A DNA stretch of 64,000 nt, taken from NCBI RefSeq assembly GCF_964204645.1, contig NC_134026.1, positions 12,956,050-13,020,049 of the forward strand. The letters run 5' to 3'. Under the pieces are notes generated by a model, which worked only from the letters and a program-made list of their open reading frames with translations, did no database searches and was not told where the DNA came from. A program made the translations under genes and the position numbers. Source of the stretch: Tubulanus polymorphus (taxonomy: Eukaryota; Animalia; Nemertea). Shown here in pieces: positions 6,913-63,752 of this stretch (position 1 is the first letter of the stretch; each line of letters starts with the position of its first letter).

Positions 6913-6934
6913 TGCAATAAATAAATGTACCGTA

Positions 6935-7311
6935 AGTAATAGGGATAATAGGCTTTCAAATCAAAGGTCGAACGGTCGAGTTCATTAAAAACAAAACATT
7001 AAAAGTAATTTAAAACTATAATATATTTTCATAACCGTGTGTATTTTATATTATAACTAAATATTTATTCTAAGATATCAATAATTTAAAAAGCATATAA
7101 TCAAATATATTTTAATAATAATTATTATTCTATTATTCAACTGAAATACACGGTTATGAAAATATATTATAGTTTTAAATTACTTTTAATATTTGTTATT
7201 AATGAACTCGACCATTCAACCTTTAACCTGAAAGCCTATTATCCCTATTACTCTTAAAATAATCATATAAATGAATAACATATAAATTGACAGATTATTA
7301 AATATAAAAGT
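6935..7311 (+). repeat. Left TIR of Polinton 1, containing an internal hairpin at 6935-7252
   Basis: Near-identical reverse complement of 23663-24041. Bases ~6935-7044 pair with ~7145-7252. Confidence 0.95.
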
Positions 7312-7342
7312 GTAAGCTCTTATAGAATAGATATATAAATAG

Positions 7343-7954
7343 TTATTTTATAAATTTATATTCATATGGAAATTGTAGTCTCAGTAATAATTTTGAACCT
7401 TTATTATTCTTTAATTTATTCATATATTCATCATGTAATTCAGTAGGTATAATTTGATTTTCTTCCAATGATTGTTGCATAGATTTTCTATCTTTGTTAT
7501 AAAATAAAACTAGAAATCTAATGTTTTCTCTAAAGTCTTTAACAATTGAATTATATTTTTGATTTAAAACCCATGTTGTTATCCCAAAATGTCTTCCAGA
7601 GAAAGCTAAATAACATAACTCACTTTCTCTCACTTTTGAATCATGTAAATTTGCGCAATCATCTATAATGAATAATGTATTTGATCCTTTATAAGTATCA
7701 ATTGCTATTTTTATACAATTATCTAAATTTTCTTTTACTGTTTTAGGATTTAATATAATAAACTTTTTTATCTTAACTATATCTCTATTATATGTTTTAT
7801 TCATTTCATAAGTAGGACAGAATAATATTATATTATCAAAATGATTCTTATAAATAGTTTCTAACAAGTCTAATATGAAATGTGTTTTACCACAATTGGT
7901 TACACCAGTAACTAACATATTATGCGGTTCAAATATAAATAAATCTTTATTCAT
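7343..7954 (-). CDS. A32/FtsK-like DNA packaging ATPase
   Basis: Walker A GVTNCGKT, Walker B LFIIDD, and SGRHFG and LNQ..IRENI-type motifs. Intact 203-aa ORF. Confidence 0.92.
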   Translation of the reverse strand: MNKDLFIFEPHNMLVTGVTNCGKTHFILDLLETIYKNHFDNIILFCPTYEMNKTYNRDIVKIKKFIILNPKTVKENLDNCIKIAIDTYKGSNTLFIIDDCANLHDSKVRESELCYLAFSGRHFGITTWVLNQKYNSIVKDFRENIRFLVLFYNKDRKSMQQSLEENQIIPTELHDEYMNKLKNNKGSKLLLRLQFPYEYKFIK

Positions 7955-9042
7955 TTATTCTTTTAATTTTACTAGATAAAATCCATTCATTAAATTTATC
8001 ATCATATCCTTTGTATTTCACCAAAGAATACTTTTTTCCTTTAAGAGTTTTTGTTTTCAATACTTTTTCTATTTTGTATTCTATTTCATCTGGGTTTGGT
8101 ACAAGTGATAATTTTTGTTCATAGAAATAACCTAATATTTCTTCATCTTTTATATCTTCTTATTTATAAACAAATGGTTTAGTTAATATTATCTTTTTAA
8201 TCTTGAATATTTCTTCTGTAAAATTAGGGGTATAACCTTTATAAAATGTTTTTCTATATTTAGATATTCTTACATGTTGCCCTATTTTAAATTTAGGTTC
8301 ACCGAAATCATGTGTAACAAACGCGCCATATAAATTATTCCAAACTATTTCTGAATTATCTTCTTTTCTAGCTTGTATAGGTTTCATATTTATAGAACTA
8401 TGTTTAGAATTATTATAACCTTTCACTAAATCATCTAACACATCGATATATTTATATGTTTCATTAGCAGTAAAATATTTCCACATTCTAGTTTTCAATG
8501 TTTTATTAAATCTTTCTATAATAGATGCTTTTTTATCTGAATGTGTTGAAAAATATTTTACATCGTTATCAGATAATAGTTTTTTAAAATGTTTGTTATA
8601 AAATTCCTTACCTTCATCAAATTGTATCTTATCTGGAATAGCTTCTTTAAATATAGATTTAAAAGCATTTGTAACATTTTCTATTCCAGTTGTATTTTTG
8701 ATTGGAATTGACCATGCGTATCTACTGAATATGTCTTTAAGATTCAGTATCCAAAAATATCCTTTGTTGTATTCCTCTAAGTTCTTCATTGTTAATTAAA
8801 TCTGCTTGCCATTGTTGATCAATATATGAAACCATAACTTTTCTTGTTAAATAAGTTTTATCCATTTTCTTGTGTATTTGATATGTTGGTTGATTTTGTA
8901 ACCATGATTTTAATTCACTATATTTTATATTACCATTTTCTTTATCAGATTTAATTTTATCCCATAATTCTGTAACACTAGAATATGATACTTCACTTTC
9001 TGGGTTATAATATAACTCTCTTAAATATTGTTCTTTTTTCAT
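7947..9042 (-). pseudogene. Retroviral-like (RVE) integrase with C-terminal chromodomain, broken reading frame
   Basis: LYYNP N-terminus, QWQADL (D), IQFDEGKEF (D), IIERFN (E) and YNNSKHSSI. A chromo-like tail YKIEKVLK...SLVKYKGYDDKFNEWI lies at ~7960-8080. Split into ORFs 8737-9042, 8160-8789 and the tail. Confidence 0.92.
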
Positions 9043-9056
9043 CTTATTTTAATCCA

Positions 9057-9422
9057 TTAATAATAATTTAGATTTAGTTTCAATGACTTTATGATTTGAC
9101 TTATTTTCTGGTATGATAGGTTTATTGTCATTGGAATCATCTTATCTTTATCATCAGATTTGAATTTTGATTTATATATTACACCGGATAATATAATAAC
9201 TGTTACTAATCCAATTGTAATATATAATTTATAATTACTTCCAGCATTAGAAGAATCAGATGGATTATTATTTGAATCAATATCAGATGAAGTCTGTGAT
9301 TCATTCATATCAGTTAATTTCTTTTTCTTAGCTTTTTTTAATTCTGAAGATCTTTTACCTAATTCTCTTGCCCATTTAATTTGTTTCTCGGATCTAGCCT
9401 TTTTCTTAACTCCATCACTCAT
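9057..9422 (-). CDS. Polinton hypothetical protein, basic N-terminus with one TM helix
   Basis: 121-aa ORF with RSEKQ..W..ELG motif and hydrophobic LYITIGLVTVIILSGVIY. Confidence 0.65.
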   Translation of the reverse strand: MSDGVKKKARSEKQIKWARELGKRSSELKKAKKKKLTDMNESQTSSDIDSNNNPSDSSNAGSNYKLYITIGLVTVIILSGVIYKSKFKSDDKDKMIPMTINLSYQKISQIIKSLKLNLNYY

Positions 9423-10017
9423 CTATTTTAGTTAATTTTTGTTCTGATTCATTTTCTGTTTCGACGTTTGGTTGTAGTACATCTGTTTCAATCTTACCTG
9501 ATTTACATTCCATAGGCTTGATGTTCGAAAATGTTATGACGCCAGTAGAAATTAATGTCATAACCGATCCTAATTGAAATGAAGCATAACCAACCCATTT
9601 TTGTAATTCAGTCATAACTAAGTAGTCATTTTTCAAATCACTATATAATTTATTTTCATCATCAATTGGTATTAACTGGTTACATAACTTAGAATAACAT
9701 TTGACAATACCATCTGAAATAGAATCATTTATTCTAGCTAATCTAGCTTCTTCATAAATCTTAAAATATTTTAAAACTTTATCTGGTTTCATAGAGTCTA
9801 GTTCTTGAAAAGTAATGATTCAATTAAAAAACTCATTAGTTTTTCCACCGGCAATCAATAGTTCTATATGATGCTTACAATATAAATAGTATTCATAATC
9901 TATATTGTTATTAACTTGAATAGAATTAGAAACAACTGTATCTTTATTATCACTTATACCCAAATCATCTAATGTTTTTTCAATATCAATACTATTCTTA
10001 CTCGATTTCTTTGTCAT
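9415..10017 (-). pseudogene. Polinton hypothetical protein split in two
   Basis: ORFs 9820-10017 (TAAATG start) and 9415-9792 are adjacent and probably one disrupted gene. Confidence 0.6.
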
Positions 10018-11192
10018 TTATATTAGAGAAATTTAATAAGAAAAATATTATAAGTATTATAAAATGATACTAGCTAGTTAAAGCTAAAGAATTCTAGTAT
10101 TGACTACTGATACTAGCTATTTCAATTTAAAGAATTTCTATTTGAATCTATTCAAAATATAAAGTATTCTCTTTTTGAAAAGAAAATATTAAAAATAAAA
10201 TTTTAAATAATTTTAAGTAATTTTAAATACTTTTTATTTAAATTAGGATTTAGATTAACTAGACTACTATTGTCTATCTATTAGGAGCAGTAATTATAAC
10301 TGTCCAGATAAGTCATTTCGGATTCTCGATAAATAAATCCTAAAACTGAAAATAAATTCAAAGAAACGACTGTTGGAAATACTATTTCATAAACACATAT
10401 ATATATTTTATTCTACAATCATTATCGATTTCCACATTCCAAGCCGCTCCACTCAGTCCCGGTAAGTTATGCGTGGAATGCAGGAATCAATAAAGTATAA
10501 TACAACATCTGTCACTGTGTGTCATTAACAACAGCTTAATGACGCAATTGAAATTCCGACAAACGTAATGCATTGGAAGCCTATACAGTATGGCTAAACT
10601 GCTACAGTCTCATGAGTTGAAATATCCATTATTTCTGATTTCACATCCATCTATCTTCACTTTCTTCATTCAATGGCCTTCATTTTGTTATCTAAAAGAT
10701 AAATATCTAGCGTAGAATAAAACTAACTTGAAGTTGTAGTTGTAAAATATAAGATAAGTTTTGCATGTTTAACGTTTCCCAACGCCTTAATAACAACAAA
10801 AACAGTACTTACATTTATAACTGTAAACTCCTAAAATTGTGTTTATAGAGAGAATATCCTATACGTTCCTATGCTTATGTGCTGCGCGTTTATAACTGCC
10901 AGTTATTCACTAGCTAAACACTGTCTGTGCAACATATGTTCCTTCCTTTGTAATATAATTGATTAATCCTTTTCAACTGAAATAGCACATTCGATCAATA
11001 TTCAAATGAGATACACCCTATTCAACTGAATATGAAATACGGCACAGATGTTTTTGTAAACAACCTAATACAATTACATACAGGCGGTTTGACATAGATC
11101 GAGAGTAACCGGTTTTCTAAGCGTTTAAGCTTCAACGTATTTTTCATTATGGGTTGAGTTCCATAATTCAACAAATGTCTTTGCTTTATCGT

Positions 11193-11783
11193 TTATAGTT
11201 GATCTAAATATAATTTCATATCTAGTTTGTTAGATTTAATTATATTTTCTTTCTTTTCAAGAGGCCTTAAATTTCTCCAGTTCCATATTAGCTTCTTATT
11301 ACAATCATCACTCATGTCAAATTTAGAAATCGGCAACACGTGATCAATATGAAAGTATTCACCATAATTATCTATATTCATTTTATCATCGAATTGATAT
11401 ATTATCCATGATTTGAGAAATTCATCTGAACAACCCAACAAATTAGATAATGTTTCTGAATGTGTTTCTTTGTTGAATAATTGTGTTAATCTAGATCTTA
11501 AGCATTGTTTCAATCTAAAATTAAGATCTGTTTGATATCTTTCTCTCATATATTCTGCCATATAATAATTATAATGTTCTATATTATCTTCTCGATATTG
11601 TTTGGTATATAGTTTAGTGCAGGTTTTACAGCAATATTGAAAACCATCTTTGCTAATCTCACGCTTACTAAATTCTGTTAAAGCTAATTTATCTAATTCA
11701 CATTTAGAACACTTCTTGTAATATATATTTATAACACCAGTGTTATTTGTAATATTTATAGTTTGTGGTTGTTCTGGTTCCAT
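11193..11783 (-). CDS. HNH endonuclease with N-terminal CxxC..CxxC zinc ribbon (large DNA virus/phage type)
   Basis: CSKC...KDG..CCKTC, LRSRL...LLGCS, NYGEYFHIDHVLPIS and NWRNLRPL..EN..K. Confidence 0.85.
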   Translation of the reverse strand: MEPEQPQTINITNNTGVINIYYKKCSKCELDKLALTEFSKREISKDGFQYCCKTCTKLYTKQYREDNIEHYNYYMAEYMRERYQTDLNFRLKQCLRSRLTQLFNKETHSETLSNLLGCSDEFLKSWIIYQFDDKMNIDNYGEYFHIDHVLPISKFDMSDDCNKKLIWNWRNLRPLEKKENIIKSNKLDMKLYLDQL

Positions 11784-11855
11784 TTATTATACATATTTTT
11801 TTACTAAATTGATTTTAGAAGTTATTCATTTATATGTTATTCATGAATACCTATG

Positions 11856-12245
11856 TATTAGATACCCTATTAGATACCCTATTAGATACCCTATTAGATA
11901 CCCTAATACCTGATACCCTATTAGATACCTTAAATACTTAAAACCCCCTTTTTTAAAATAAATATTATTTATACAATTTTCAACCAATTCATTCTTATTT
12001 TTTCAACTAATATATGAATAAGTTTGAAAATAATAAAGGTTATTTATTATTACTGAGGTTTCAATTTCCATATGAATATCAGTTTATAAAATAGGATATT
12101 TTATGTATTAGATTGTATTAGATTGTATTAGATATGTATTAGATTGTTTTAGATATGTATTAGATATGTATTAGATACGTATTAGATACCTTAAATACTT
12201 AAAACCCCCTTTTTTATTTACTATTATTTTATACAATTTTCAACC
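11856..12245. repeat. Two arrays of TATTAGA-core short tandem repeats, each followed by a duplicated ~55-bp unit
   Basis: (TATTAGATACCC)n at ~11856-11930 and (TATTAGATTG/TATTAGATATG)n at ~12105-12190. Both are followed by TTAAATACTTAAAACCCCCTTTTT...TATTATTTTATACAATTTTCAACC. Confidence 0.85.
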
Positions 12246-12252
12246 TTTATTA

Positions 12253-13170
12253 TTATTTGAGTGTTAGATAATTAATTTTTGAATCATTTTCAATATCATA
12301 CCCTAACAATTTTCCCAAATTCTCTACCGTATCTTCTTCTAATTCTTCATTATTTTTATACTTATTCTTCGTCCTTTTTGCCGCAACATCAATAGTTGTT
12401 TCATTGTTATGCTTACTCATCCTTTCTATCATATCATCAATAGTTTCTTCTTTATGTTTCATAGAATCTTTATTATCAATATGCTTATCTGTAACTATAT
12501 CACCATGTGGGTGCCGTATGGCGCCATTTTCATTATTATCTTTATTAGTGTTTGCTCCTAATATTTCATTTACAGTGTTTGATCCTAATATTTTATTAGC
12601 ATCGGTTAAATCTAATTCATCTTTATTAGGTGTTGCTAATAAAAAATCTTCATATAATTCTTTACCATTTACTTTTTTATTTGAAACAAATTTTGTAACA
12701 TATCTAAATGGGTGTTCTATAAATTCTCTTAAACCAACGCGTTCTATAACATTAGCAATATGTGAATTTGTATTCATATGTTTATTCCAATTTGATGGAG
12801 CGTTTGAAAATTCACCTTTACAATAATCACAATAATTTCTATTTTCACTAACATTTAATATTATTGCATTATCATATGTAGAAGGTATTACATTATTAGA
12901 TGTAGAAGTTATTACATTATTAGATGTAGTAGGTATTACATTATTAGATGTAGTAGGTATTACATTATTAGATGTAGTAGGTATTACATTACTTAAATTA
13001 TCAACTACACCACTTTTATTATTATCGATTTCTATTAGTTTAGTTTTATAAATTTTGAAAATAGGATCAAATATCAAAGCTATATTACAAGGTATTACAT
13101 AATATAAACCATCATTATTTTCATGTGTATCGATGTATGGAATATGTTTATATACTTTACCTCCTTCCAT
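12253..13170 (-). CDS. Polinton hypothetical protein with VIPTTSNN repeats and a U1/C2H2-like zinc finger
   Basis: 305-aa ORF with TAAATG start, 24-bp tandem repeats at ~12870-12990 and CDYC...HMNTNSH. Confidence 0.7.
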   Translation of the reverse strand: MEGGKVYKHIPYIDTHENNDGLYYVIPCNIALIFDPIFKIYKTKLIEIDNNKSGVVDNLSNVIPTTSNNVIPTTSNNVIPTTSNNVITSTSNNVIPSTYDNAIILNVSENRNYCDYCKGEFSNAPSNWNKHMNTNSHIANVIERVGLREFIEHPFRYVTKFVSNKKVNGKELYEDFLLATPNKDELDLTDANKILGSNTVNEILGANTNKDNNENGAIRHPHGDIVTDKHIDNKDSMKHKEETIDDMIERMSKHNNETTIDVAAKRTKNKYKNNEELEEDTVENLGKLLGYDIENDSKINYLTLK

Positions 13171-13202
13171 TTATTATATATATTTTTATTAAAGTTAAAA
13201 TT

Positions 13203-14446
13203 CGAATACATAACACTATCTAATTGTGTATTTACAATATTTAATTGCGCGTCAGATATAATATAAATGTGCATTTTGAAATTTAGGCTTCCTTTTTTCT
13301 TTGTCATGAATAATTGTATTCCATCTTTAGTGTTTTGTAATTTTTTTCCAGAACCATGTAATGAATTATCCTCTGTTGTTCTAAAATCTAACCATAATGC
13401 ATATTTATTACCGGTATAATAATCAATTTGATTAATGTTACAATTTTCAGATGATTTTACTTTTTCATTCATAAAATGTTTTCTAATTTCTGGCCACTGA
13501 TCTATCATTCTCGTTCCTTGACAAAATATTTTATTTGCTATTCCTTCGATAGTTATTTCTACTTTTGTTATTTCAGGATTATAATACTTATCAACCTGTA
13601 TTGCACCATTAGAATATGTTGCAATGGTAAAAAATATTAATATACCTTTAATAGATCTTCTTGGGAAGTTAATATTCTCATTAATTATTTCATCATTTGC
13701 ATAAATAGTTACAGTTTTAAATTTATCAATATAATCATATAATAATGAAAATCCTTGATTGTATTGAGTTTGAATTATACTTGTTTTCATCAGTTACTGT
13801 ATCATATTCTAAACATATATTTGATAATTTATAACTCATATCTTTAACAACGCTAGAATAATACAATTTCATTTACAGGAGCAAATGTTATCTCAAATAT
13901 AACATCTTCTTGAATTGCATATTTATATAAAGGCGCATTATTATTTATCAATTCAAAGTCTAATGGAATTTTATATTTGCTTCCATAAATCTTTTTTATC
14001 AAATTATCTGCGGTACGAGTTACTATTGCGTCATTAGCTCCTGATCTTAATTTACTTTGGTTTTCTGATTGGATGCCTTGAAATATCATATTATTTCTAT
14101 TTTCTTTAGTTAACCATAAATCTTTATAATGCATAAATAAATAATAATCATCTAATGAGAAAACTGTTTCTGGACCAATCTTTATTGTTAACTTTTTAAT
14201 CAAATATCTCCCAACATTATCAACAACATAATTATTATTATTACCGATTACTTTTATATCAGCTGATAAATAAATACTATTTGGAACGTAAAAAGTATTT
14301 TGTGTTAATCGAGGAATTCTAACATATAAAGTTTCATCAGGATTAATATTAGAAGGGTTATGAGTAATTATATGATGTGATCTTTCTGCTTTAATAGCAT
14401 TAGATATTCTAGAAATCTTAGAAGGACTTATATAACTCCCACTCAT
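13203..14446 (-). pseudogene. Major capsid protein (double jelly-roll/hexon-like), frameshifted
   Basis: ORFs 13853-14446 and 13095-13790 (ITHNPSNI...LYVRIPRL; RSIKGILIFF; YALWLDFRT..DNSLHGSG) fit the size and motifs of Polinton MCPs. The stop codon TAG seen in copy 2 is TCG here (13203-13205). Confidence 0.8.
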
Positions 14447-14469
14447 TTATTTAACAATAAAATTAATTA

Positions 14470-15915
14470 TTTATTTTTTATCATGGTTACTTGATATTTT
14501 TTGATATCATATTCACTAACCCAAAAATAATAGCACTTACAACTGTAATTAAAAATGAAATAATATGTTCAGCAGCAAACTTAAGAATATTCCCAGCAGA
14601 TTTCAATATAAAACCAACAATTGATGCAATAATTCCTGGTAAAGCTGCAGCAGATTTTTTAGATAGTTCTCATAAATATTTTGCTAATTTCTTTAAACCA
14701 TCCCTAACTTTATCTTGTATAGAATTATTATCTGGGGGTTTATCCGGTTTATTGGGAGTAGGAGTAGATTTTAAAGCATTTGATATAGCTAAACCAATTG
14801 TTGTGAATACTATAGTTACAGCTGTTAGAATTGAAAGAATTGTTATTTTTAAACTTAAATAATAATTTTATTCTATCTTTCAATGATATTTTAGAATTTG
14901 GTTTTATTAGATATCTTTTAAAAACATCTTTTAATCTATCAATATTATAATCATATGATTTTAATAATAATTTAATTTCTTCTTTTTGTAATTCTATGTT
15001 ATATTCTAAATCATCTTTTTCTTTTTCTAAACGTAATTCTTTTTGCCTATATTCTATTTCATCAATAACTTTATTATCTCTATCTAATTTTAATTGTTCT
15101 ATTTCTTTATTTTTATCAGTTAATTATTTTTCTAAAAATCTAATTTTAAAATCTCTTATTTCTTTTTCATGCGCAATTTTATCAGATGCAAGTCTTATAC
15201 TAATAATTTCTCTAATTGCTTTATCAGAAAATATATCTAAATCTTCTAATTCTTGATCTGTTGCATCAAGTAATCCCTTCGGTAAAAGTTTTTCAGTTTG
15301 AACTTCTCTTGAATTAGGTCTACTAGTTTCTGGTTCTAAATTATTATCGATTGTTTCAAATAATTTATTAATTCTTTGTTTAAATACTCTTTCATTTTTA
15401 ATAATTTCTTCTTGTGTTACATCTTCTATTTCATTATTATTCTTATTCTTTTAATTCTAGATAGTACTTAGTCAGACTTAAAGCAAAGTTGATTCTGCTA
15501 ATATTTTGTTTTGTTTTTTATAAGAGATATCAATATAATAATCACCTTTCAAACGATAATAAGATTCACCATCTAAAAACTTTAATTCTTGTACTAAAAG
15601 TCTGGCGCCTCTGGCATTTATATTATATCCAGATTTTTCAAATATAGGTTTGAAATTATGAATATATTCATTATATTCTAAATTTTCCTTTAATAAACCT
15701 GGATTTTCATTTTCAATAGGTATTCTAGATCTAGTTCTTCTATCAAATTCATCTGTTGATGGGCCTTTAGAACCACTATCTGCTAAATTAGAATTATATG
15801 CTGATTCATCATCATTATCAATATTAGTTTCTGCATCATTATAATCATCATCAATATATCCCTCATTATTATTTCCCATTTCTCCCATTTCATAATCTTC
15901 TCCACCTTCTGCCAT
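14470..15915 (-). pseudogene. Long acidic/coiled-coil protein with hydrophobic-amphipathic C-terminus, disrupted
   Basis: Starts MAEGGED (15915). The C-terminal frame reads ITILSILTAVTIVFTTIGLAI...AAALPGIIASIVGFILK. Homologous termini occur in copy 2. Confidence 0.65.
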
Positions 15916-15929
15916 TTACATAATACAAA

Positions 15930-17318
15930 AATTAAAATTTAAAATATAATATTCCTCCGATTACAATTCCTATACAAGTTATAGCTAATTTAGCATTTTT
16001 CATGGGATTTATTATCATCATTTAGTTTAATTATATCATGTTGAATAATATCAGTTTCTTTATTTTCTGATGTATTGTAATCTTTTATTTTAGAATCATT
16101 ATTTAATTTTATTAGTTTTAGTTTCTGTTGATTGAATGTGTTTTTTATTTTTTTCACTTTCCATTAATTTTGGAGCAGTGATAATCTTTTTATTCATATC
16201 ATTCAATCCAAATGAATTATTTATTGTTGCAGTATTAATTAGATTATTATAACCAATTATATTTCCCATCTTTAGTACTAAATCATTAGAAATAATGAAT
16301 AGATTAGGGCCTATACAATAATTTAATCTAATATGTGATTTATCTAAATAATTTTGATATCTTACAATGTTTTCTGGAATCGATCTATTTTTATCATTAT
16401 GAATTGAATCTTCAAATAATACTTTAAATTGTTTTTCTGTATCGAATGATGTATTCAAATTTCCAATTATCGGTGATCTTGTTTCAACTTGCGCACCTAG
16501 AATACATATCAAATAAGTTCTAATAGATTGATTTATTCTTTCTATACCTGATTTAGTAAAACCTTCACTATTTTCTAAAATAAAATAAACCCAACCATTA
16601 TTGTTTTCTTGTTTTAAATGATCATAAAATTTCGGTAATTTATTGAAATTTAATGTTTCTAAATCCTTTGTTTCTATTTTACCATAACCTAATTTATTAT
16701 TATAGATATTATAAAAACTATTAGATGGTATGGGAAGTGCACAATATTCTGCAATCTTTTTAGGGCAAGGAAGTGATCTTATTGTTCCAATTTTTGTTCT
16801 AAAATCAGAATTATTTATATCTATATTAAATTCATTACAAATTTTATAAAACTTTGATACATTAATATTATTATCTAATTCTTTAAAATATCTAGATCCT
16901 GGTAAAGCGCACTCTAATTCGTTTAATATTATTCTGATTTGAAAGTATGTATGAAATCTAAATAAACTTTGAATTAATTTATATTTAGAATTATTCAAAT
17001 GATCATTCCAACTTTCATTCCACATCCTGTTGTTGCACAATAAACAGCAAAATTTAATTGGTTCTGCCAATACTTCATATTAGATTTTAATAACCATTGT
17101 TTTTCATCTTTCAATTTTTTAAAATTAATTAAATATACATGAAATATATTTTCCATCTTTGCATTAAAATTATTAGTTTCAGTAACATAAATTTCTAAAT
17201 TAGTTAATGAATCTAAAACTTCATTTCTATATGTAATATCTTTATTAAAATCTATTGCTGGAATATTATATTTAATTGATTTATTATATTGGGAAGCTTT
17301 TGGAAAACTATCTACCAT
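15930..17318 (-). pseudogene. Conserved Polinton protein (WQNQLNFAVYCATTGCG family), frameshifted
   Basis: ORFs 16995-17318 and 16099-17070 join. Homologue at ~40770-42070. Probable C-terminal TM anchor near 15950-16000. Confidence 0.7.
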
Positions 17319-17334
17319 TTATATAATTAAAAAA

Positions 17335-17769
17335 TTAATAATTTATTAACTCTTTTAATAATTTATCTTGTTCTTCAACTGTTATATGGCCATTTAAACT
17401 CATTATATAATCTAGTGTATTCTTTAATTTATTAATTTCTTTTATATTAGTTTTAATTTTTTCTTTATTACTTTTTATATTTAATTTTGAACTTATACCG
17501 GTTAAAACACTTGAACTTAATCCTAATACGCCAATTGATATAGCTAAAGGTGTTAATGGACTGAATATTGCTAGAAATGTTATTACAGAACTAATTGTAA
17601 CCGAACCACTTATAATCAAATAATATATAATTTTACTTTTTAGATATTTTTTCTTTTTAACTTTTAAGTCACTTTCAAATTCTAATATTTGTTTTTCTAA
17701 ATATATTTTTAATTTAGTTTTATTTATATCATGAGGAATAATATCAATACTATCAACTTTATCTTCCAT
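17335..17769 (-). CDS. Two-TM coiled-coil membrane protein (possible adintovirus membrane-active protein)
   Basis: 144-aa ORF with a hydrophobic hairpin IIYYLIISGSV...LGLSSSVLTGIS flanked by basic coiled coils. A decayed homologue lies at ~42083-42520. Confidence 0.7.
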   Translation of the reverse strand: MEDKVDSIDIIPHDINKTKLKIYLEKQILEFESDLKVKKKKYLKSKIIYYLIISGSVTISSVITFLAIFSPLTPLAISIGVLGLSSSVLTGISSKLNIKSNKEKIKTNIKEINKLKNTLDYIMSLNGHITVEEQDKLLKELINY

Positions 17770-17788
17770 TTATTTAGAAAAAAAATTA

Positions 17789-18209
17789 CTAATAAGTAAA
17801 TTTATATGCTACAAATATAACAATAACTGTTCCACCTAAAATCCAAATTATTTCATATTTCTGTTGTTCTTTACTTGGGGTATAATAATCTGATAATTTA
17901 GGTTTGTATAGATGTAATTTTTCTTTATTGGTTACCGCGTTATATAAACTCATTGCATCATCGACTGATTGAAAATCTATGTGAAATCTTCTGATCATAT
18001 AATTCTTTATTGATGTAAACCATATAGTTTTGTCTCTTTTCTCTATATTCTTCTGCAGCTTTATTATATTTTTCTAATGCTAAGTTATGTCTTCTTTGTT
18101 CTCCTAATGAACTATTTTTATCAATATGTTTAAATAAATATCCACCACCAGTAAATGCTAAAGCGTTAACAATTGCCGATCCTATAATAGTTATAATTGC
18201 AGAAGCCAT
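17789..18209 (-). pseudogene. Small hydrophobic Polinton protein (MASAIITIIGSAIVNALAF), frameshifted
   Basis: ORFs 17958-18209 and 17789-17998 together equal the single 134-aa ORF at 42561-42965. Confidence 0.8.
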
Positions 18210-18233
18210 TTATTTAGAAAAATAATTACGCAT

Positions 18234-18455
18234 TTATATGGGAGGAATATATTTTTGTTTTTCCAAATAATCAATAGTTAAATTAGATAAAGTAATTGCT
18301 AATGCTAATTTTAAAATATCATTTATATCAAATCTATCAACATTAACACTTCCCATTTTGAATACTTTTTTTAATACCATTGAATAACCAACAGTTCCAA
18401 CTGATAGTAATGCTCCATTATATAATCCAGTTATTATCCACTTATTATCACTCAT
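18234..18455 (-). CDS. Small two-helix hydrophobic Polinton protein
   Basis: 73 aa with TAAATG start; conserved in copy 2 (43023-43211). Confidence 0.75.
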   Translation of the reverse strand: MSDNKWIITGLYNGALLSVGTVGYSMVLKKVFKMGSVNVDRFDINDILKLALAITLSNLTIDYLEKQKYIPPI

Positions 18456-18797
18456 TTATTTATCAAAAAAATTAATATCATCAAAATATTTAGTTATCTT
18501 AGTGATGATTAATTCAACATTTATTTCATTACTAGTTTTATGATTATCATATATTTTGGTTAATATGTTTTTAATATCATCAAAAATTCCATCTTCATTT
18601 AATTCATAATATTCTAAAGGCGATTTAATTAAATCAATTACTTTTTCTATATTATAATTTTCTTTATCAATCATTGATGCATTGTTAAATGATTTACTTT
18701 TTATATCAGTAATTACATCATTTAGTTTAATTCTCATTTCTTTACCATGTTTAAAATCAAACCCAAAACATATACTCGGGCCTACAGTTATATTCAT
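18456..18797 (-). CDS. Polinton hypothetical protein
   Basis: 113 aa; its stop abuts the next start (TAA-ATG). A decayed homologue lies at ~43212-43550. Confidence 0.7.
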   Translation of the reverse strand: MNITVGPSICFGFDFKHGKEMRIKLNDVITDIKSKSFNNASMIDKENYNIEKVIDLIKSPLEYYELNEDGIFDDIKNILTKIYDNHKTSNEINVELIITKITKYFDDINFFDK

Positions 18798-18816
18798 TTA
18801 TATAGTGAAAAAAAAA

Positions 18817-19575
18817 TTACTCTCTACATCTTATAACTAATTCATATATCACAGGAAAGTTATTCAAATCAATTAAATATCCATTATGATTTCTAATTTC
18901 TAATCTAAAATTATTAAAACGAGGAATGCATGGTTTGAAATCACATTCTGTTAAATTATAATTTATTTGCGTTCCAAATTCTTTAACATTCTTCAATGGT
19001 AAAATGTTTAATAAACCAGAATTACAAGTTATATCTTTAGTTGCTTCGAATGTTTTTGTAGGATCGATTAAATTGCAATAAATATAAAAGTGTGTAAAAG
19101 GTATTAAGTTTGGTGTAGCATCAGCATTGCGTATCCTTACATCTGGGGTTATTCCTAAAATTTTAGCTAAAGGTTTTTTAACTAGAAATTGATGTTGATC
19201 TTCATTACCTAATTTTATTCTTATTTTATCGGAGCTATCACTTTTAATCAGTCTTAATCCAAATCCAGCAGATGCACCCATTTTCAACCGAGCTCTTCTA
19301 TTAATTTCCTGCGCTAATGTATCTAAATTATATAATCCTGGTTTAAGATAAAGATGAAACCATTTACTTTTATTTCTATCATGAATTAAAAATACTCTAT
19401 GTTCAATAGTTTTATCCGATACATTGTAAAAAGAATTACATAAACTTATATTAACTAATTTTAAATCAACACAATTCTTAAATTCTCTATCTAATTGTAC
19501 TAGTAAATTATGAGATTTATAATTTGTAAGTCTTCTAGAATCTACAAATATTCTGTATTCTTTTAATTCTACCAT
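18817..19575 (-). CDS. Minor capsid protein (penton, single jelly roll)
   Basis: IFVDSR..NY...L.REFKN...LKLV; NSFYNV; PGLYN; FYIYCNLID; LEIRNHNG.LIDLN..P...EL match the Polinton/virophage penton pattern. Confidence 0.85.
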   Translation of the reverse strand: MVELKEYRIFVDSRRLTNYKSHNLLVQLDREFKNCVDLKLVNISLCNSFYNVSDKTIEHRVFLIHDRNKSKWFHLYLKPGLYNLDTLAQEINRRARLKMGASAGFGLRLIKSDSSDKIRIKLGNEDQHQFLVKKPLAKILGITPDVRIRNADATPNLIPFTHFYIYCNLIDPTKTFEATKDITCNSGLLNILPLKNVKEFGTQINYNLTECDFKPCIPRFNNFRLEIRNHNGYLIDLNNFPVIYELVIRCRE

Positions 19576-19592
19576 TTATTTTACATATTTTC

Positions 19593-19946
19593 TTATTCGA
19601 AATCTATTTCATGGTGCCCTTTTTCATTCTTACCTTTGTATACGAAATAGAAATCTCCAGAACATAATTTTTCTAGATCTTCACTTGATAATCTATGAAA
19701 TCTATCAGGTAAATATGTTCTGGATTTATATGTATTTCCTTTTAATCCTTCATATTCTAAGTGTATAACTAATTTATCTCCATAGTTATTAGTAACTGTA
19801 TCAATATTTGTAATTAGATATTTCTTATGGATTGTTAATTCTGTTAACTTTTTGAATTTATAATCTACAGATTTTACATTGGTAGTATCTTTTATTCTAT
19901 CTAGAAATGATTTGTTTTTCTCACTGTGCGCTTGTTTACTCTCCAT
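19593..19946 (-). CDS. Small beta-rich hypothetical protein (possible OB-fold ssDNA-binding protein)
   Basis: 117 aa, FKKLTEL..KKYLI...YGDKLVI.L...YLPDRF; lies directly downstream of PolB. The fold is inferred. Confidence 0.6.
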   Translation of the reverse strand: MESKQAHSEKNKSFLDRIKDTTNVKSVDYKFKKLTELTIHKKYLITNIDTVTNNYGDKLVIHLEYEGLKGNTYKSRTYLPDRFHRLSSEDLEKLCSGDFYFVYKGKNEKGHHEIDFE

Positions 19947-19975
19947 TTTAATAACATATTTTTATTAAAATTTGA

Positions 19976-22900
19976 TTAACACATTAGAATTCTTTTCATT
20001 ATCTCGTTCTCTTTTGTTTCTTCACTTTTAAATTTTAAGTATTCATCTAAATTACAACCATAAGCAACTGTATGAATTCCATCATCCAGAATATATCTTT
20101 TATCATCAAATGGGTTTGGACTTATCTTTTCAATTTCTTGAATAAATGTTTCATGATCTTCAGATCTTAAACATCTCATTTTATGTTTTCTAACTTCTTC
20201 ATTGAATATACAATTGATGTAATCTTTGAAATGAATATTCTTTTCTACTACACTTTTGGTTATTCCTTTTAACTTTTTAGCTTCATGTTCATTCATGTTT
20301 CATTCTGTAAAACTTCAGTTAATTCAAATACTCCATAAGGTTGTGGTTTCATCATTGCCCAACCATACAAATTATTTGCATCTATATATAATAACTTATA
20401 TCCAGGGTTATCATTTACATTGAAATATCTATCACCTAATACACCCGAAACTCCTCCTCTTATAGATTTTTCGAATAATAGTAATTGATCTATATTTGTT
20501 AACAAATCCATTTTTATATCTGTAAATTTTAATCCACAATCCCATGTTAATCCTGGTGATGAATAACAATGACATGGATCAATATTTAAATATTTTAGGT
20601 TTACATCTCTAAACCTTTCGAATATATCAGTTAATAATAATACATCTGATTTTAGATATAAATCTACTAATTGCCCATGATTTTCTATTTTGAAATGATT
20701 CCAAATATTCAATGTTCTATTATATACTTCATCTTTAACATATTCATTTTTTTAATTCATCATAGAATTGTTCTTTTAATAATTCAGTTATGTTAAAATC
20801 ATTATGATTTTTATAGAAAGAATATGGAATTGCTCCTTTATATCTCATTAATTGAAAATCATCATTATTTGGGTAGTGTTGCTTTAATATTTTTAATTCA
20901 TCATCAACTAATGATTTTGATAAGTTATCTAATGAACTATTTAAAAATCTATATGAATCTATAAATCTTAGACATCCAAATTGGAATGATATATAATTCT
21001 CAGATGTTTTAGCTAACATTCTAAATTTATAAGTTGGTATTTTATCTTTTGATCTATTTGAATTTAATCTTTCTATTTCATTATTGATTTCTTCTATTTT
21101 ATGGCATAACTGTTTGATGAATAAATGTGCATCATATCCTGATAGATTATGAAATATAACTGGTACAAAGTTAATTTTCTTAGCTTGTAAATTACAATTC
21201 TCATGCGCTGCGCCTGTAAACTTTCCATTCAAATGATCATGGTCTCTTACTTTTTTATCTTTATAATTAAATATCTTTTCACAATAATAACATTTATCTG
21301 CAAACTCAAATGCTTCTTTATCTTCTTCTGTCATTATAATTTCTATATTTGTATTCAATAATTTACTAAATCTTATTTCATATTCAATTAATAAGTCACA
21401 AAAATGATTGATAACATTTTCATTTCTATAATGATAATATTCACTTTCAATTAGTTCTGGATAATCAGATTTAATATATAACCCGAAAGCTGCAGCTGAT
21501 TGATGAATCTTTTTAATTGTATTTGTTATTGGTGGTTCATCTGAAAAATCATTTTCATTAGAATTTAATTTCTTTCTTTTATAATATATTTCTTTTCTAT
21601 CTTGATCAGTTAGTTCTTTATTTAATGATTCAAAATCTCCATATATTACAAATGGTACTTTATTTTTGTAATCATATTTTTTGAATTCTAATATTTTATC
21701 TTTTTCATTTGGTAAAACTAATTAACAATAATCATGATTTTCACATAATTGTTTATGATTTAATAATGTACTTTCATTACTGAATTTATGTAAACATTTT
21801 CTACAAAGATATATTTTATTATGGTGATCACTTTCTGTTCTAAAGAATAAATCTATTTGTTTAAAACTCATTCGCTGGGGATATATTTCTTCATTATCCA
21901 TTCAATCTGGGGGAATTAATTTTTTCTTCATATTTCAATGTAAAGGTCGATACATTTCCAGTGTAGAGACCCTCCTAAAACCAATATCTGTTATGAAGCT
22001 AATAGGTATCTCTACCAGAAAATGTTAGTTATAAAAAGTTTGGACCTACGGGTGCAAGGTAGACCCCAAAACCTGAGGTCAAGTTGAGGTCACGCAACCA
22101 AAAAAGTCGCCGACAACCAGTACATACTGCCTGTGTGTGTAGAGTATATACAATCGCTTGTGAGCTCTCTATAGAGCATGCTGACTCAGTGTAAGCAGCC
22201 AGACTCGACTAGTTTGCCATCTATCGGGGGTAATAGGAACCGTCACTTGAGGCGTGGCCACGACCCAGTTTCTTTGTTTACGCTGTCACGTGAGGCGTGA
22301 CGACGCCAACTGAATTCCACATATAATGATTCTTATAATATAGTATATCTATAACATCATTTGAATCATAATCTTTTGATAGGTATAAAGGTTCTAATGT
22401 ATAATATTTTATATTGTTACCTTTGTTAAATCAAATACATTTATCTTTATATTATTATCTCTTTCTATTTTTGGGATGTTTTTAATTCTAACAGGATACT
22501 TATCTATCTTATAATTATTTTCAAATGGTTTATAATGAGTTAATCTACAAATATTATAAGTTGCAGGATGTAAGCAACTTATTATAGCCCATAGAAAACA
22601 TTTATCATCTTCATTTTGTACATTTATAACAGCATTAGTTTTAAATGGTAGTTTAATATAACTCGATGCTTCAATATCTGGTTCTTTATAATATGATACA
22701 TTATTTTCATCAATTGGTTTTGATTTAGTTAACTTATTATATTTTGTGTTATAAACATGTAAAGTCATAAATATTATTTCATCAAATATTAAACCAGATC
22801 CTTCAAAATATTTCTCTTCTATTTTAGTTTTTACTTCATTATAACATTTATCTAATTTATCATCTATATGTTGTTTAGATAAAATATGTTGTGAATGAGA

Positions 22901-23516
22901 ATTTATATTATATATTGGTTTATCTTCAGATTTTATAAACTTTACTTTAGAAGATATACTAATTTTAGGATATTCAACATCAGTTATTATTTTTATTATT
23001 TCTTTCATATTTTCTAAATGTTTTTTGTTTTCTTCTAATGTTTTTCCTTTATGAAATTTAAACTCATAGCTGCTGGGCGAATATCACTTTTAAATGCTTC
23101 GGTTATCTCTATATCTTTTTTATTATCTAATGAATTAATATATTTTCTTACATCTTCCATGTATGATCTTTTATTGTTTAATTTATTTTTTATGCTTTTA
23201 ATTGTCTTCTGTTTCTTATCATTATCTTTATCAGAATAATCTTCACCTAAAATATCATTATTCTTATTTCTTATTTACTTTTAGATTTTAAATGTTCATT
23301 ATAATATCTTTTATCACTGAATGATTGATTACATGTATCACATTTATATGTTTCTTTTTCATTCTTTAATTCTTCTAATTTAGTTTCTAATATATCATCT
23401 TTATATTCTAGTTTCAATTTATTCTCTAAATGTGTTTTAGTTTTATTGTGTCTTGATTTTTGGGATTTATCTATATTGATATTACATGTTGGACAGTAGT
23501 ACTTCTTTGCTTCCAT
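19976..23516 (-). pseudogene. polB: Protein-primed DNA polymerase B, disrupted
   Basis: N-terminal C2H2 fingers (23271-23516), NEDDKCFLWAI, ExoI YGDFES, EndoVII-like CYYC...RDHDH..G..H..CN, ExoII FHNLSGYD, ExoIII YLKSDV, Pol motif A YIDANNLYG and C-terminal KGI...FDDKRY. Motifs B and C are missing (deleted); frameshifts and an insertion are also present. Confidence 0.93.
21863..22314. mobile_element. ~450-bp unclassified insertion in PolB
   Basis: A GC-richer block interrupts sequence that is contiguous in the second PolB copy (46381-46410). Confidence 0.7.
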
Positions 23517-23662
23517 TTTAATACTAAATTCTTTATTAAAATTGATTTTAGAAGTTCAATGATTTATATCATGTATTATTTCAATCACACTTTACTAACA
23601 CTTTTAATGTTTAAAATCTAACTCACACAAATATGAATATTGAAATAATGTTGTAAATATAT

Positions 23663-24041
23663 ACTTTTATATTGAATAATCTGTCAATTTATATGTTATT
23701 CATTTATATGATTATTTTAAGAGTAATAGGGATAATAGGCTTTCAGGTTAAAGGTTGAATGGTCGAGTTCATTAATAACAAATATTAAAAGTAATTTAAA
23801 ACTATAATATATTTTCATAACCGTGTGTATTTCAGTTGAATAATAGAATAATTATTATTATCAAAATATATTTGATTATATGCTTTTTAAATTATTGATA
23901 TCTTAGAATAAATATTTAGTTATAATATAAAATACACACGGTTATGAAAATATATTATAGTTTTAAATTACTTTTAATGTTTTGTTTTTAATGAACTCGA
24001 CCGTTCGACCTTTGATTTGAAAGCCTATTATCCCTATTACT
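23663..24041 (-). repeat. Right TIR of Polinton 1, containing an internal hairpin at 23722-24041
   Basis: Reverse complement of 6935-7311. Confidence 0.95.
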
Positions 24042-35610: not shown

Positions 35611-36704
35611 AACATATACATGTGACTCAAAAATCTAAATCAAGCTTATACACTGTCATCTTTTGAGTCATTAACTCACCTTTCTCCTTTCTCTTTACTC
35701 AGACGTTGAAAGCATAAAGAAAGAACATAAGAATAATGTTGAATATCAGAAAAAAACAGAGAAGATGATAGCTGAGGCTAATGTCAGTATAGCAATTGCT
35801 GTGGTTGCATTATTCTGTTTGATTGATATTTGCCTATAACTTAAGTAAAAAGTTGTACTGATTGGTTGGTATTTCTGGTATAACTTGCTAAGTAATCCTT
35901 TCGTCTAAAGATGTTGGTGTTTCATATAGACTATAACTTATTATATACTTACAATATTGGCACGTTTTCTTTCTTTCTATTTCTTCTAATTACTTTTCAT
36001 TTTCTTCTAACATCCTTTCATTTTCTATATGCGCCTGAGATTTTTTATGTTTGAAATAATTACTTTTACAAATATCTAAATTACAAATGTTACAACGTTT
36101 TTTAGAATCATCAATTGTTTCATTATCTGTTATATTATTATCATTAGTTTCAAGTGTATTAACATTATCTGTTATATTTTCTATGGTATCCTTAGTTTCA
36201 ATTGTATTAACATTATTTATTAAATTATCTATGATATTATTATCAGATATATTATTATCATTATTATTCTTTTCTTTTTCTACATGTTTCTTTGATTTCT
36301 TATGTGATTCCCAATTTTTATATGATATTCATTTCTTACATACGTCACAATATTTTTCATTTGTCTTTTTGGTTTTGATATCAGGTTCAATCTTTGTATT
36401 ATAATTATCATTACTCGATGTAGAAGGTATAACATCTATATTTACATTATTATCTTCTTTCTTAGGTTCAACTTTATTAGTATCTTCTATTTTAGATTCA
36501 ATATTATTAGTATCCTCTATTTTAGTTTCAATATTCTTTTCTATTTTACTTATTCTATATTTGAATTGATTAAAGAATTCTCAAAAATACTTACTATATT
36601 CATAAGCTTTTATATAATATATATCTGATAGCATTTCAATTGGAATTTGTATTTCATATATTCCACTTTCCATTTATTATGATATTTTTATTAAAATTAA
36701 AATT

Positions 36705-37931
36705 CTAATACATAACACTGTGTAATTGTGAATTTGTAATATTTAGTTGCGCATCAGATATAATATAAATATGTATTTTGAAATTTAGACCCGCTTTTTT
36801 CTTTTTCATGAATAATTGTATTCCATCTTTTGTGTTCTGTAGCTTTTTACCAGAACCATGTAATAACTTATCTTCAGTTGTTCTAAAATCTAACGATAAT
36901 GCATATTTATTGCCGGTATAATGATCAATTTGATTAATTTTCAGATGATTTTATTTTTTCATTCATAAAATGTTTTTTAATTTCTACCCATTGATCTATC
37001 ATTCTCATTCCCTGACAAAATGTCTTATTTGCAATGCCTTCAATTGTTATTTCTACTTTTGAAATTTCCGGATTATATCAAGTATCAACCTGTATTGCGC
37101 CATTAGAATATGTTGCAATGGTAAAAAATATTAATATACCTTTAATAGATCTTCTTGGGAAGTTGATATTCTCATTAATTATTTCATCGTTTGCACTAAT
37201 AGTTACAATTTTAAATTGATCAATGTAATCATATGATAATGAAAATCCTTGATTATATTGAGTTTGAATTATACTTGAAATATTTTCATTAGTTATTGTA
37301 TCATATTCTCAACATATATTCGATAATTTATCACCCATATCTTTAACAACACTAGATAATACAATTTCATTAACAGGAGCAAATGTTATTTCGAATATAA
37401 TGTCTTCTTGAATTGCACATTTATATAAAGGTGCATTATTATTTATCAATTCAAAATCTAATGGAAATATATATTTACTTCCATAAATCTTTTTTATCAA
37501 ATTATCTGTAGCATTATCTGCTATTCTTCTGATCTTAATTTATTTTGATTTAAGGATTGGGTTCCTTGAAATATCATATTATTTTCTATTTTCTTCTGTT
37601 AACCATGAATCTTTGTAATGCATAAATAAATTATAATCATCTAATGAAAAAATAGTCTTCGGACCGATCTTTATAGTTAATTTTTTAATCAAATATCTTC
37701 CATTATCAACAACATAATTATTATCATGACCAGTTACTTTTATATCAGCTGAAAATAAATACTATTTGGAACATAAAAAGTATTTTGATTTAATCTCGGA
37801 ATTCTAACATATAAAGTTTCATCAGGATTAATATTAGAAGGATTATGAGCAATTATATGATGAGATCTCTCTGCTTTAATAGCATTTGATATTCTAGAAT
37901 TTTTAGAAGGATTTATGTAACTCCCACTCAT
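36705..37931 (-). pseudogene. MCP, copy 2
   Basis: Fragments 37740-37931 and 37309-37500 are nearly identical to 13203-14446; multiple frameshifts. Confidence 0.85.
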
Positions 37932-38125
37932 TTATTTAAGAGAAAAAAATTAATTAAGAATCATTACTTGGGGATTTATCCGGTTCATTAGGAGTAGGAG
38001 TAGATTTTAATGAATTTGAAATAGCTAAACCAATTGTTGTAAATACCGTAGTTACAGCTGTTAGAATTGAAAGAATTGTGATACCTTCTAACTTCAATAA
38101 TAATTTTATTCTATCTTTTAATGAT

Positions 38126-39420
<1,295 letters not shown>

Positions 39421-42400: not shown

Positions 42401-42560
42401 TTTCTTTTTAACTTTTAAATCATTTTCAAATTCTAATATTTGTTTTTCAAAATATGTTTTTAATTTAGTTTTATTTATATCATGAGGAATAATATCATTA
42501 TTATCAACTTATTTACCCATTTATTTAGCAAAAAATAATATATAATTAATTAGTAAATTT

Positions 42561-42965
42561 TTATGCTACAAATATAACAACTGTTCTACCTAAAATCCAT
42601 ATTATTTCATATTTCTGTTGTTCTTTTCTAGGGGTATAATAATCTGATAATTTAGGTTTATATAGATGTAATTTTTCATGATTTGTTATCCCGTTATATA
42701 AACTCGTTGCATCATCGACTGACTTAAAATCTCTATGTGAAATATTTTGATTATATAATTCTTTATTGATATAATCCATGTAGTTTTGTCTTTTTTCTCT
42801 ATATTCTTCTGCAGCTTTATTATATTTCTCTAATGCTAAGTTATGTCTTTTTTGTTCTGCTAACGAACCATTTTTATCAATATGCTTAAATAAATACCCA
42901 CTACCAGTAAATGCTAAAGCGTTAACAATTGCCGATCCTATAATAGTTACAGCAGCAGACGCCAT
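42561..42965 (-). CDS. Small hydrophobic Polinton protein, copy 2
   Basis: Uninterrupted 134-aa version of the split gene at 17789-18209. Confidence 0.75.
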   Translation of the reverse strand: MASAAVTIIGSAIVNALAFTGSGYLFKHIDKNGSLAEQKRHNLALEKYNKAAEEYREKRQNYMDYINKELYNQNISHRDFKSVDDATSLYNGITNHEKLHLYKPKLSDYYTPRKEQQKYEIIWILGRTVVIFVA

Positions 42966-43549
42966 TTATTTAATGAAAAAATTATGCATTTATATAGGAG
43001 GAATATATTTTTGTATTTCTAACTAATCAATAGTTAAATTAGATAAAGTTACTGCTAACGTTAATTTTAGAATATTATTTATATCAAATCTATCAACTTT
43101 AGCACTTCCCATTCTAAATACTTTTTTTAATACCATTGTATATCCAACAGTTCCTACTGATAATAATTCTCCATTATATAATCCATTTATTATCCACTTA
43201 TTATCACTCATTTATTTATCAAAAAAATTATTATCCTCAAAATATTTAGTTGTGTTATTTATAATTATTTTAACATTTATTTTATCACTACTTTTATGAT
43301 TATCATATATTTAAGATAATATATTTTTAATATCATCGATAATTCCATCTTCAGTTAATTCATAATATTCTAAAGATTTTTTAATTAAATCAGTTACTTA
43401 TTCTATATTATAATTTTCGTTATTAATCATTGATTCATTATTAAATGATTTACTTTTTATATCAGTAATTACATCATTTAATTTAATTCTCATTTCATTA
43501 CCATGTTTAAAATCAAACCCAAAACAAATACTCGGCCCTACTGTTATAT

Positions 43550-45465: not shown

Positions 45466-45603
45466 AGTAATTGGGAATAAGTTGGTTCAGGTTAAAGGGT
45501 TGAGAGGTCGAGTGAGTAGAAAAATAAATTCTCGCACGCTCGAATTTATTTTTCTACTCACTCGACTCAACCTTTGACCTGAACCAACACATTCCCAATT
45601 ACT
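45466..45603. repeat. Polinton-family terminal hairpin (AGT...ACT)
   Basis: AGTAATTGGGAAT...TTCAGGTTAAAGG...AAATAAATTCTCGCACGCTCGAATTTATTT...ATTCCCAATTACT. The loop is nearly the same as in the hairpins at 53636 and 60610. Confidence 0.88.
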
Positions 45604-48545: not shown

Positions 48546-48599
48546 TACAATAATATTGATTTTTATTTTTATTATTGATTTTTTTATGTTCACTGTCTC

Positions 48600-61621: not shown

Positions 61622-61672
61622 ATATTCAAAATAAGATATTTCAAATTACTTTTAATTCTTTCTCTCAAATAA

Positions 61673-61876: not shown

Positions 61877-61896
61877 TGAATTAATTAAATAATCAA

Positions 61897-63486: not shown

Positions 63487-63490
63487 TTAA

Positions 63491-63709: not shown

Positions 63710-63752
63710 TTAAAAAAATCAAAAGTAATTTGAAATATCTTATTTTGAATAT

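Follow-up and report, generated by a model that had tools for sequence, protein, structure and literature searches.

Terminal palindromes with co-varying arms and strand-polarised mismatches in Polintons of the nemertean Tubulanus polymorphus

In a stretch of 64,000 nucleotides from the genome of the nemertean Tubulanus polymorphus (the window, meaning the whole stretch that was analysed), six Polinton ends carry a terminal palindrome inside their TIR, and comparison of the arms between elements indicates that this palindrome is genuinely maintained, with its two arms co-evolving. We propose, with slightly less than even confidence, that a displaced strand folds back at its 3′ end and serves as its own primer for the second strand, while protein priming is kept. 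The palindromes, the relationship between their arms, a strand bias in the arm mismatches and the replication genes of the element are described below, together with the other explanations that we weighed.

The window is a nest of mobile elements, whose features are collected in Table 1. The largest, E1 (6935..24041), is a complete 17.1-kb Polinton (17,107 bp) flanked by the 6-bp target duplication ACCGTA (6929-6934 and 24042-24047), in which several genes are frameshifted and GC is 24%, against 35-38% in the flanks. Since Polintons/Mavericks are recognised by a size of 15-20 kb, a 6-bp target duplication and TIRs of 100-1000 bp (PMC4196379), E1 is a Polinton by size, duplication and TIR, as well as by its pPolB, integrase and ATPase. 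Its TIR measures 380 bp, of which the palindrome is the outer 318 bp, and the left and right copies differ by 4 substitutions and one 2-nt indel over the 380 bp. A Pao retrotransposon, recognised by Pfam, neighbours E1 and is itself a sign of an animal host, BEL/Pao elements being metazoan. Just to its left (4075-6912) lie three minus-strand ORFs (326, 409 and 230 aa), the last ending near the insertion site; the sole match among the three is that of the 326-aa ORF to the T4 endonuclease VII dimerisation (SAP-like) domain, E 2e-5.

Elements 2a, E3 and E4 are related to E1, and 2b more distantly so. The outer ACT of element 2a interrupts the polymerase gene of element 2b, so that one Polinton is seen to be inserted in the polymerase gene of another (2b, 45604-48687), which in turn ends beside Pao-like sequence; the pPolB pieces of 2b are 49-57% identical. 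The insertion directly inside the 2a hairpin is, from its ends, probably a solo LTR, and past it the usual inner TIR sequence resumes. E3 and E4 are non-autonomous and have ~1.25 kb in common (84%), in opposite orientation. The large palindrome of E4 pairs 61418-62491 with 62910-63956 at 91%, with a small hairpin (62845-62906) near the centre, and one of its arms contains a 276-bp unit (62240-62515) between inverted TGGACG-repeat arms, of which there is a partial copy on the other arm; this unit is possibly a small inserted element. Two more hairpin-shaped repeats (52959-53415 and 58654-58886) are unrelated to the Polinton ends and are probably MITEs.

Table 1. Elements, terminal palindromes and E1 genes located in the window
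Feature	Coordinates	Strand	Details
E1 left terminal palindrome	6935..7252		outer arm from 6935, inner arm to 7252; outermost part of the TIR
E1 left TIR, inner part, non-palindromic	7253..7314		matches 23660-23721
A32-like packaging ATPase	7343..7954	-	Pox_A32 E 3e-12
rve integrase with chromodomain, three reading-frame pieces	7947..9048	-	rve E 1.3e-7, Chromo E 7e-6; order kept in related loci
HNH-like ORF, candidate nuclease (weak)	11193..11783	-	HNH_4 E 0.49
Probable major capsid protein, two pieces	13095..14446	-	Capsid_N E 0.005, below cut-off
pPolB, in pieces	19976..23083	-	DNA_pol_B_2 E 1.3e-5, Endonuclease_7 E 4.8e-4
pPolB N-terminal piece	22409..23083	-	first ~110 residues: predicted PRD1-like terminal-protein fold
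E1 right terminal palindrome	23722..24041		outer end 24041
Element 2a	36050..45603		left-truncated relative, ~88% nt identity to E1, without pPolB; terminates in the 45466-45603 hairpin
TG...CA insertion directly inside the 2a hairpin	44697..45461		TTAG duplication; from its ends, probably a solo LTR
2a right terminal palindrome	45466..45603		outer end 45603; tip in the opposite orientation to those of E3 and E4
Element 2b	45604..48687	-	more distant Polinton remnant; pPolB interrupted exactly at 45603; hairpin-less end 48687
E3	53636..56020		2.4-kb non-autonomous element; target duplication AATGTT; 264-bp TIRs
E3 hairpins	53636-53757, 55899-56020		identical, 122 bp, first part of each TIR
E4	60610..64000		non-autonomous; large imperfect palindrome, centre near 62875; leaves the window
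E4 left terminal palindrome	60610..60729		folds as a hairpin with 56-bp arms

The first-pass annotation of this DNA had described six terminal stretches as hairpins that begin with AGT and end with ACT, and all six are as described in position, end motif and fold, though one detail is to be added: the stretch at 45466-45603 closes a deleted element on its right side, with 45603 as the outer end. The arms measure ~105-110 bp in E1, 56 bp at 53636, 55899 and 60610, and ~60 bp at 45466. At the five ends folded with dinucleotide shuffles, folding z-scores were between -12 and -22, and none of the 100-200 shuffles of each folded as well, while a local-palindrome scan of 10 block-shuffled windows returned no hairpin of this kind. 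The end motif is AGTAAT (AGTAAC at 60610), an imperfect form of the (AGT)2 motif of vertebrate elements, where Polinton ends have been reported to start 5′-(AGT)2 or (AG)3 (PMC8097293).

It had also been supposed that every terminus of the family is a hairpin, which holds for these six ends but not for a seventh. When the window was scanned with a profile of the end, 13 strong sites were found, corresponding to the two arms of the six hairpins plus a lone site at 48687, which belongs to the more distant relative 2b. This end, on the minus strand, has the same end motif with 5 differences over 24 nt from that of E1. It has no inner arm, and its fold is no better than that of shuffles (z -0.6, -0.8 and -0.9). 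Since this relative has the same end motif and polymerase type and lacks a hairpin, the hairpin is not needed by the whole group. By eye, 48600-48687 contains a C-rich stretch followed by a T run, approximately where hairpin tips lie elsewhere; the hairpin tip may be an older TIR motif captured by fold-back.

The outer and inner arms of E1 differ from each other, and the differences quoted earlier are correct and found at both E1 ends. From this agreement the hairpin had been called an inherited design. Inherited it is, but for another reason: agreement between the two ends of an element is uninformative because both are copies of one TIR. The real support for inheritance is co-variation of the arms across subfamilies together with strand-polarised mismatches. 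A check for compensatory changes between arms had been suggested, and it did reveal co-variation between subfamilies, which is visible in raw reads as well as in the window. Among four independent hairpins, the first 24 nt contain 11 variable columns, of which 8 differ between elements yet match between the arms, the arms disagreeing in the other three. The true pairing of outer with inner arms is the best of the 24 possible permutations, with 3 differences against 7 for the next (p at most 1/24, this being a small test). Indels are symmetric as well: the two arms of 2a share a 9-nt segment, and those of E1 a ~60-nt extension.

Raw reads extend this picture to many more copies. We aligned reads from run X5, which carries the same species label but another sample and study code, to the left ends of E1 and E3; ~12% of the run was read, and all data come from integrated copies. 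At the E1 left end, covered by 8,867 reads, depth rose from 11-20 in the flank to ~2,900 in the outer arm, then fell to ~2,000 in the inner arm and to ~1,570 on its interior side. Ahead of the outer AGT, 1,571 reads carry unrelated sequence (agreement 0.34), which is the mark of many insertion sites. Integration thus takes place at the outer AGT, where host-junction reads pile up, and the six best-supported loose ends, each with at least 281 reads, include no pile at the inner boundary (7252). Host-junction and inner-boundary counts are about equal, suggesting an inner arm at most ends of the close family, although the two counts were made differently and the comparison is rough. We estimate that the hairpin is present at a hundred or more ends. 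An assembly artefact was considered and ruled out by the imperfect arms, the agreeing ends, the intact target duplication and the raw reads that cross the inner boundary (depth ~1570).

The reads also show variants mirrored between arms. Among the variants listed, the commonest outer-arm variants recur at the paired inner position in 8 pairs. Allele frequencies at paired outer/inner positions were 0.50/0.65 and 0.45/0.49 in E1, and 0.51/0.62, 0.22/0.20 and 0.92/0.89 among six pairs in E3; these alleles are unphased, and there were two possible placements for 115 and 93 of the reads. In E3, a ~35-bp core around the tip reaches a depth of ~1,380 as against 160-400 on E3-type arms, meaning that the same tip sits in hairpins with other arms. 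The ~100-bp AT loop noted at first is present in E1 but is not the sole form in the family: ~600 reads exit the E1 loop at 7098 and ~530 re-enter at 7094, carrying an extra self-complementary segment, so the long AT loop of E1 is one variant among several. A few reads switch strand (8 at 6968-6970 and 13 at 53709-53714), as if the fold-back were shorter or doubled, and may be single genomic copies or library chimeras.

Mismatches between arms are unevenly distributed. In nt 1-24 they occupy 3 of 96 positions, whereas nt 25-45 have 20 in 88, a difference with Fisher p 7e-5; for nt 46-56 the count is 2 of 44. The zone boundary at nt 24 was read off the same data. Near-perfect pairing of the last 24 nt is what a primer terminus would need. 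The mismatches are also polarised. The 22 substitutions between arms comprise 7 transversions and 15 transitions; of the latter, 14 give G·T pairs on the 3′-ended strand (the strand whose 3′ end is the element end) and a single one gives such a pair on the other. If each shared site is counted a single time, the ratio is 10:1 (p 0.012), and for sites found at both ends of E1 or E3, which are therefore older than the insertion, it is 7:0 (p 0.016). At each of the six ends it is the 3′-ended strand that has the better fold, with a margin of 1.3-6.3 kcal/mol. The polarity test is post hoc, as it was devised on an alignment already seen, and covers four related elements. The same polarity is equally expected from C-to-T and A-to-G deamination on one strand; CpG transitions account for 3 of the 10 G·T sites. 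Against a deamination origin in the course of ordinary strand displacement, it can be argued that this process exposes the 5′-ended strand longest and would give the opposite bias.

Would these features arise if the hairpin were a mere by-product? A fold-back copying accident might have duplicated the end, with occasional arm-to-arm copying keeping the tips alike and no role in replication, an account that we regard as rather unlikely. It would explain why the sister end at 48687 works without a hairpin and why arm length (56 to >100 bp) and tip vary freely. Fold-back accidents are, moreover, common in these elements, as the giant palindrome of E4 illustrates, and accidental annealing is offered as an alternative in a preprint on Halocafeteria (bioRxiv 10.64898/2026.07.28.741278). 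What such accidents account for poorly is a hairpin kept in four subfamilies and at what we estimate to be a hundred or more ends, a ~35-bp tip core common to ~1380 reads with differing arms, and a mismatch polarity of 14:1.

What the element might use to replicate such ends can be read in part from its genes. The pPolB of E1 has 169 relatives at E<=1e-30, and its DNA_pol_B_2 match is on one piece only, just under the Pfam cut-off. The structure of the N-terminal piece was predicted with four relatives (mean pLDDT 47; 50-65 over residues 1-110), and the terminal-protein region has a predicted β-α-β-β-α-β topology, with S95 in an invariant GSG loop. In a comparison with 48,161 chains, the best structural match of this model was 4IR1, the little-finger domain of a DNA polymerase IV (Z 9.9; 95 residues superposed at an rmsd of 2.7), and Y-family polymerase structures make up 9 of the 11 top matches. 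The Polinton terminal protein has been described as a little-finger fold, homologous to 4IR1, with the linking Ser/Tyr between helix 2 and strand 4 (bioRxiv 10.1101/2024.03.18.585575), and S95 of E1 sits between helix 2 and strand 4. Because the E1 polymerase has the terminal-protein fold in this low-confidence model, protein priming seems to be retained in E1.

Among the E1 ORFs scanned with Pfam, several of which have no assignment, there was no match to a Rep (HUH) nickase, nor, among those scanned, to an adenovirus-like maturation protease. The HNH-like ORF (11193-11783) has a Cys-rich N-terminus and homologues in two metagenome loci, L005 and L007 (39-41%); it has no PDB match, and HNH_4 (E 0.49) is its only Pfam match. 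Relatives of the ATPase, up to 82% identical, occur at 20 metagenome loci (L001-L020) with the same gene set in shuffled order and the ATPase away from the end, and these loci show no recognisable Polinton terminus. A search of viral contigs and prokaryote genomes with the ATPase found no relative, and pattern scans for the end motif and the tip gave no match.

From these observations a replication route can be sketched, for which we infer that the fold forms in vivo and primes synthesis. Protein-primed first-strand synthesis, starting from the terminal protein, would displace one strand, and the 3′ tip of the displaced strand would fold onto the inner arm, with the terminal base at the 3′ end paired in the predicted hairpin fold. 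The folded 3′ end would then be extended by the polymerase of the element; for phi29, recessed 3′ ends have been described as good primers in ordinary polymerisation (PMC4150772). If the folded tip were trimmed and extended anew, inner-arm sequence would be copied onto the outer arm, and the tips would stay alike. Such synthesis would yield a duplex with one closed end, and opening or re-initiation of this end solely at the outer arm would hold outer and inner arms in their places. Opening at the outer arm only is a guess, made because it is needed for the fixed arm orientation. The inner AGT would serve as a pairing template and not as a second working end.

The standard Polinton model is an end-to-end racket or panhandle (PMC4196379), for which direct evidence is said to be lacking even in PRD1 and adenovirus (PMC11886824). 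For E1, the computed energy of the end-to-end panhandle is -392 kcal/mol as against -91 and -105 for the local hairpins. Since the panhandle is far more stable, the hairpin could win only kinetically. A different use of the hairpin, which we consider improbable, is as a built-in panhandle, in which the folded 3′ end would be a local duplex origin for TP priming and the far end of the 17-kb strand would be unneeded. Such an origin would fit the kept TP (predicted), the identity of the arms over the last 24 nt, the polarity of the G·T pairs and the orientation of the arms, which is fixed, and TP-capped telomeres of Streptomyces use folded 3′ palindromes (PMC5449611). In phi29, however, origins with the non-template strand running beyond the template 3′ end were markedly less active, and such ends needed blocking against ordinary extension (PMC4150772), a comparison that carries over loosely because the phi29 TP is of a different fold.

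The hairpins had originally been likened to parvovirus or poxvirus termini. Of this likeness only 3′ fold-back priming is kept, since the TP domain is, by prediction, retained and the arms are unswapped. In a cycle of that type, the genome would be released or matured, also from the chromosome, either by nicking followed by hairpin transfer or by a resolvase that cuts a cruciform. Whole-hairpin flipping would swap the arm types and erase the mismatch polarity, and neither is seen: the outer arms have C28 in four of four and C35 in three of four, like the hairpin-less 48687 end, the inner arms have T35 in four of four, and outer- and inner-type arms are unswapped at all six ends, with the polarity intact. 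A check of flip/flop orientations had been suggested; whole-hairpin flip/flop was absent in this small sample, which lends no support to a parvo/pox-type cycle. Inversion of just the tip is present at one of four tip-bearing ends (2a versus E4 and both ends of E3), and an outer-type arm continues into an inverted tip in 3 reads, compared with ~400 covering the arm, although joints undercount such reads. Both observations would suit the cycle, but we take tip inversion to be occasional exchange inside the stem. In AAV, flip/flop is independent at each end (PMC11575299), whereas both complete elements here have matching ends. The Endonuclease_7 match in pPolB is a possible resolvase, and the weak HNH-like ORF is another candidate nuclease. 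Against a dedicated role, an endonuclease-VII domain is common in pPolB relatives (77 of 120 among those listed), and a stretch homologous to this insert is also present in the hairpin-less 2b. On balance we think a cycle of this type highly improbable.

Least probable of all, to the point that we give it very little weight, is a reading in which the inner AGT is a second integrase site, as had been supposed, and the hairpins move alone as miniature end-capping elements: the AGT...ACT ends of each hairpin are indeed identical or nearly so over 24 nt, but none of the six window hairpins is flanked by its own 6-bp target duplication, so that the proposed search for solo hairpins found none, the TIR runs on inside the inner ACT, and host junctions lie at the outer AGT, the inner boundary being absent from the six best-supported loose ends (smallest 281 reads).

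The proposed fold-back self-priming in an element with a predicted terminal protein raises a broader possibility, which we put forward tentatively and with more doubt than belief: that this animal Polinton lineage uses a hybrid route, with a protein-primed first strand and a hairpin-self-primed second, and is a living intermediate between TP-capped and hairpin-ended genomes, in which the G·T polarity of the arms records the folding strand. If self-priming coexists with a terminal protein, it would offer a route from protein-capped linear genomes to hairpin-ended ones. How the displaced strand of a Polinton becomes duplex, and how the element leaves the chromosome, is still a matter of models and not of observation. 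A single genome that has ends with and without hairpins, an estimated hundred or more of them, and a strand signature makes the question testable from sequence alone.

E1 shares with the Polintons/Mavericks of animals a size of 15-20 kb, a 6-bp duplication, TIRs of some hundred bp and AGT...ACT ends (PMC8097293, PMC8502044), as well as a pPolB with (predicted) TP domain, an rve integrase and an A32 ATPase. It differs in that each TIR folds on itself and in that the end is AGTAAT and not exact (AGT)2. The main text of the two animal-element surveys (PMC8097293, PMC8502044) uses neither "hairpin" nor any word in "palindrom-", and in the parts of PMC6431247 and PMC11296320 consulted, hairpins are mentioned only for Helitrons and poxviruses. 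We found no description of self-folding TIRs in animal Polintons in this literature; Repbase entries or the supplements of the Halocafeteria preprint may contain such ends.

Among hairpin-ended genomes, the ITRs of AAV and other parvoviruses are terminal palindromes of similar size, and self-priming from their 3′ end can produce a duplex with one closed end, but AAV needs nicking by Rep, and its flip/flop ends are independent (PMC11575299, PMC10924063). Here, no Rep was recognised, the arms are unswapped, and the element is double-stranded, bears an integrase and has kept its TP (predicted). Poxvirus hairpin telomeres are likewise imperfect, AT-rich inverted repeats with inherited mismatches and a possible cruciform (PMC8956199). 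In poxviruses a resolvase acts on concatemer junctions to produce ends that are covalently closed (PMC8956199), whereas the ends described here integrate with a 6-bp duplication, have both arms in duplex DNA and are known from integrated copies. The TP-capped telomeres of Streptomyces also belong to a protein-primed linear replicon in which the 3′ strand folds on terminal palindromes, with fold-back end repair (PMC5449611). They are bacterial, and combine an internal origin and end patching with several short palindromes and the proteins Tpg and Tap (PMC5449611).

The closest parallel is found in the endogenous virophages (subtypes 1, 2, 5 and 6) and a PLV (subtype 4) of Halocafeteria seosinensis, whose terminal palindromes lie inside the TIR beside the target duplication and for which hairpin priming was proposed, as a hypothesis (bioRxiv 10.64898/2026.07.28.741278, 2026). 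That host is a protist, the palindrome measures 52 nt in the example given, and there is a preference, though not an absolute one, for replication genes other than pPolB. In contrast, we describe an animal Polinton with pPolB and a predicted TP fold, and a palindrome of 120-320 bp that has a separate tip, arms that co-vary and mismatches polarised by strand. Terminal palindromes themselves are thus already described for protist virophages and PLVs by that 2026 preprint (bioRxiv 10.64898/2026.07.28.741278), and what is new from this window is the strand polarity of the arm mismatches together with the retention of a (predicted) terminal protein.
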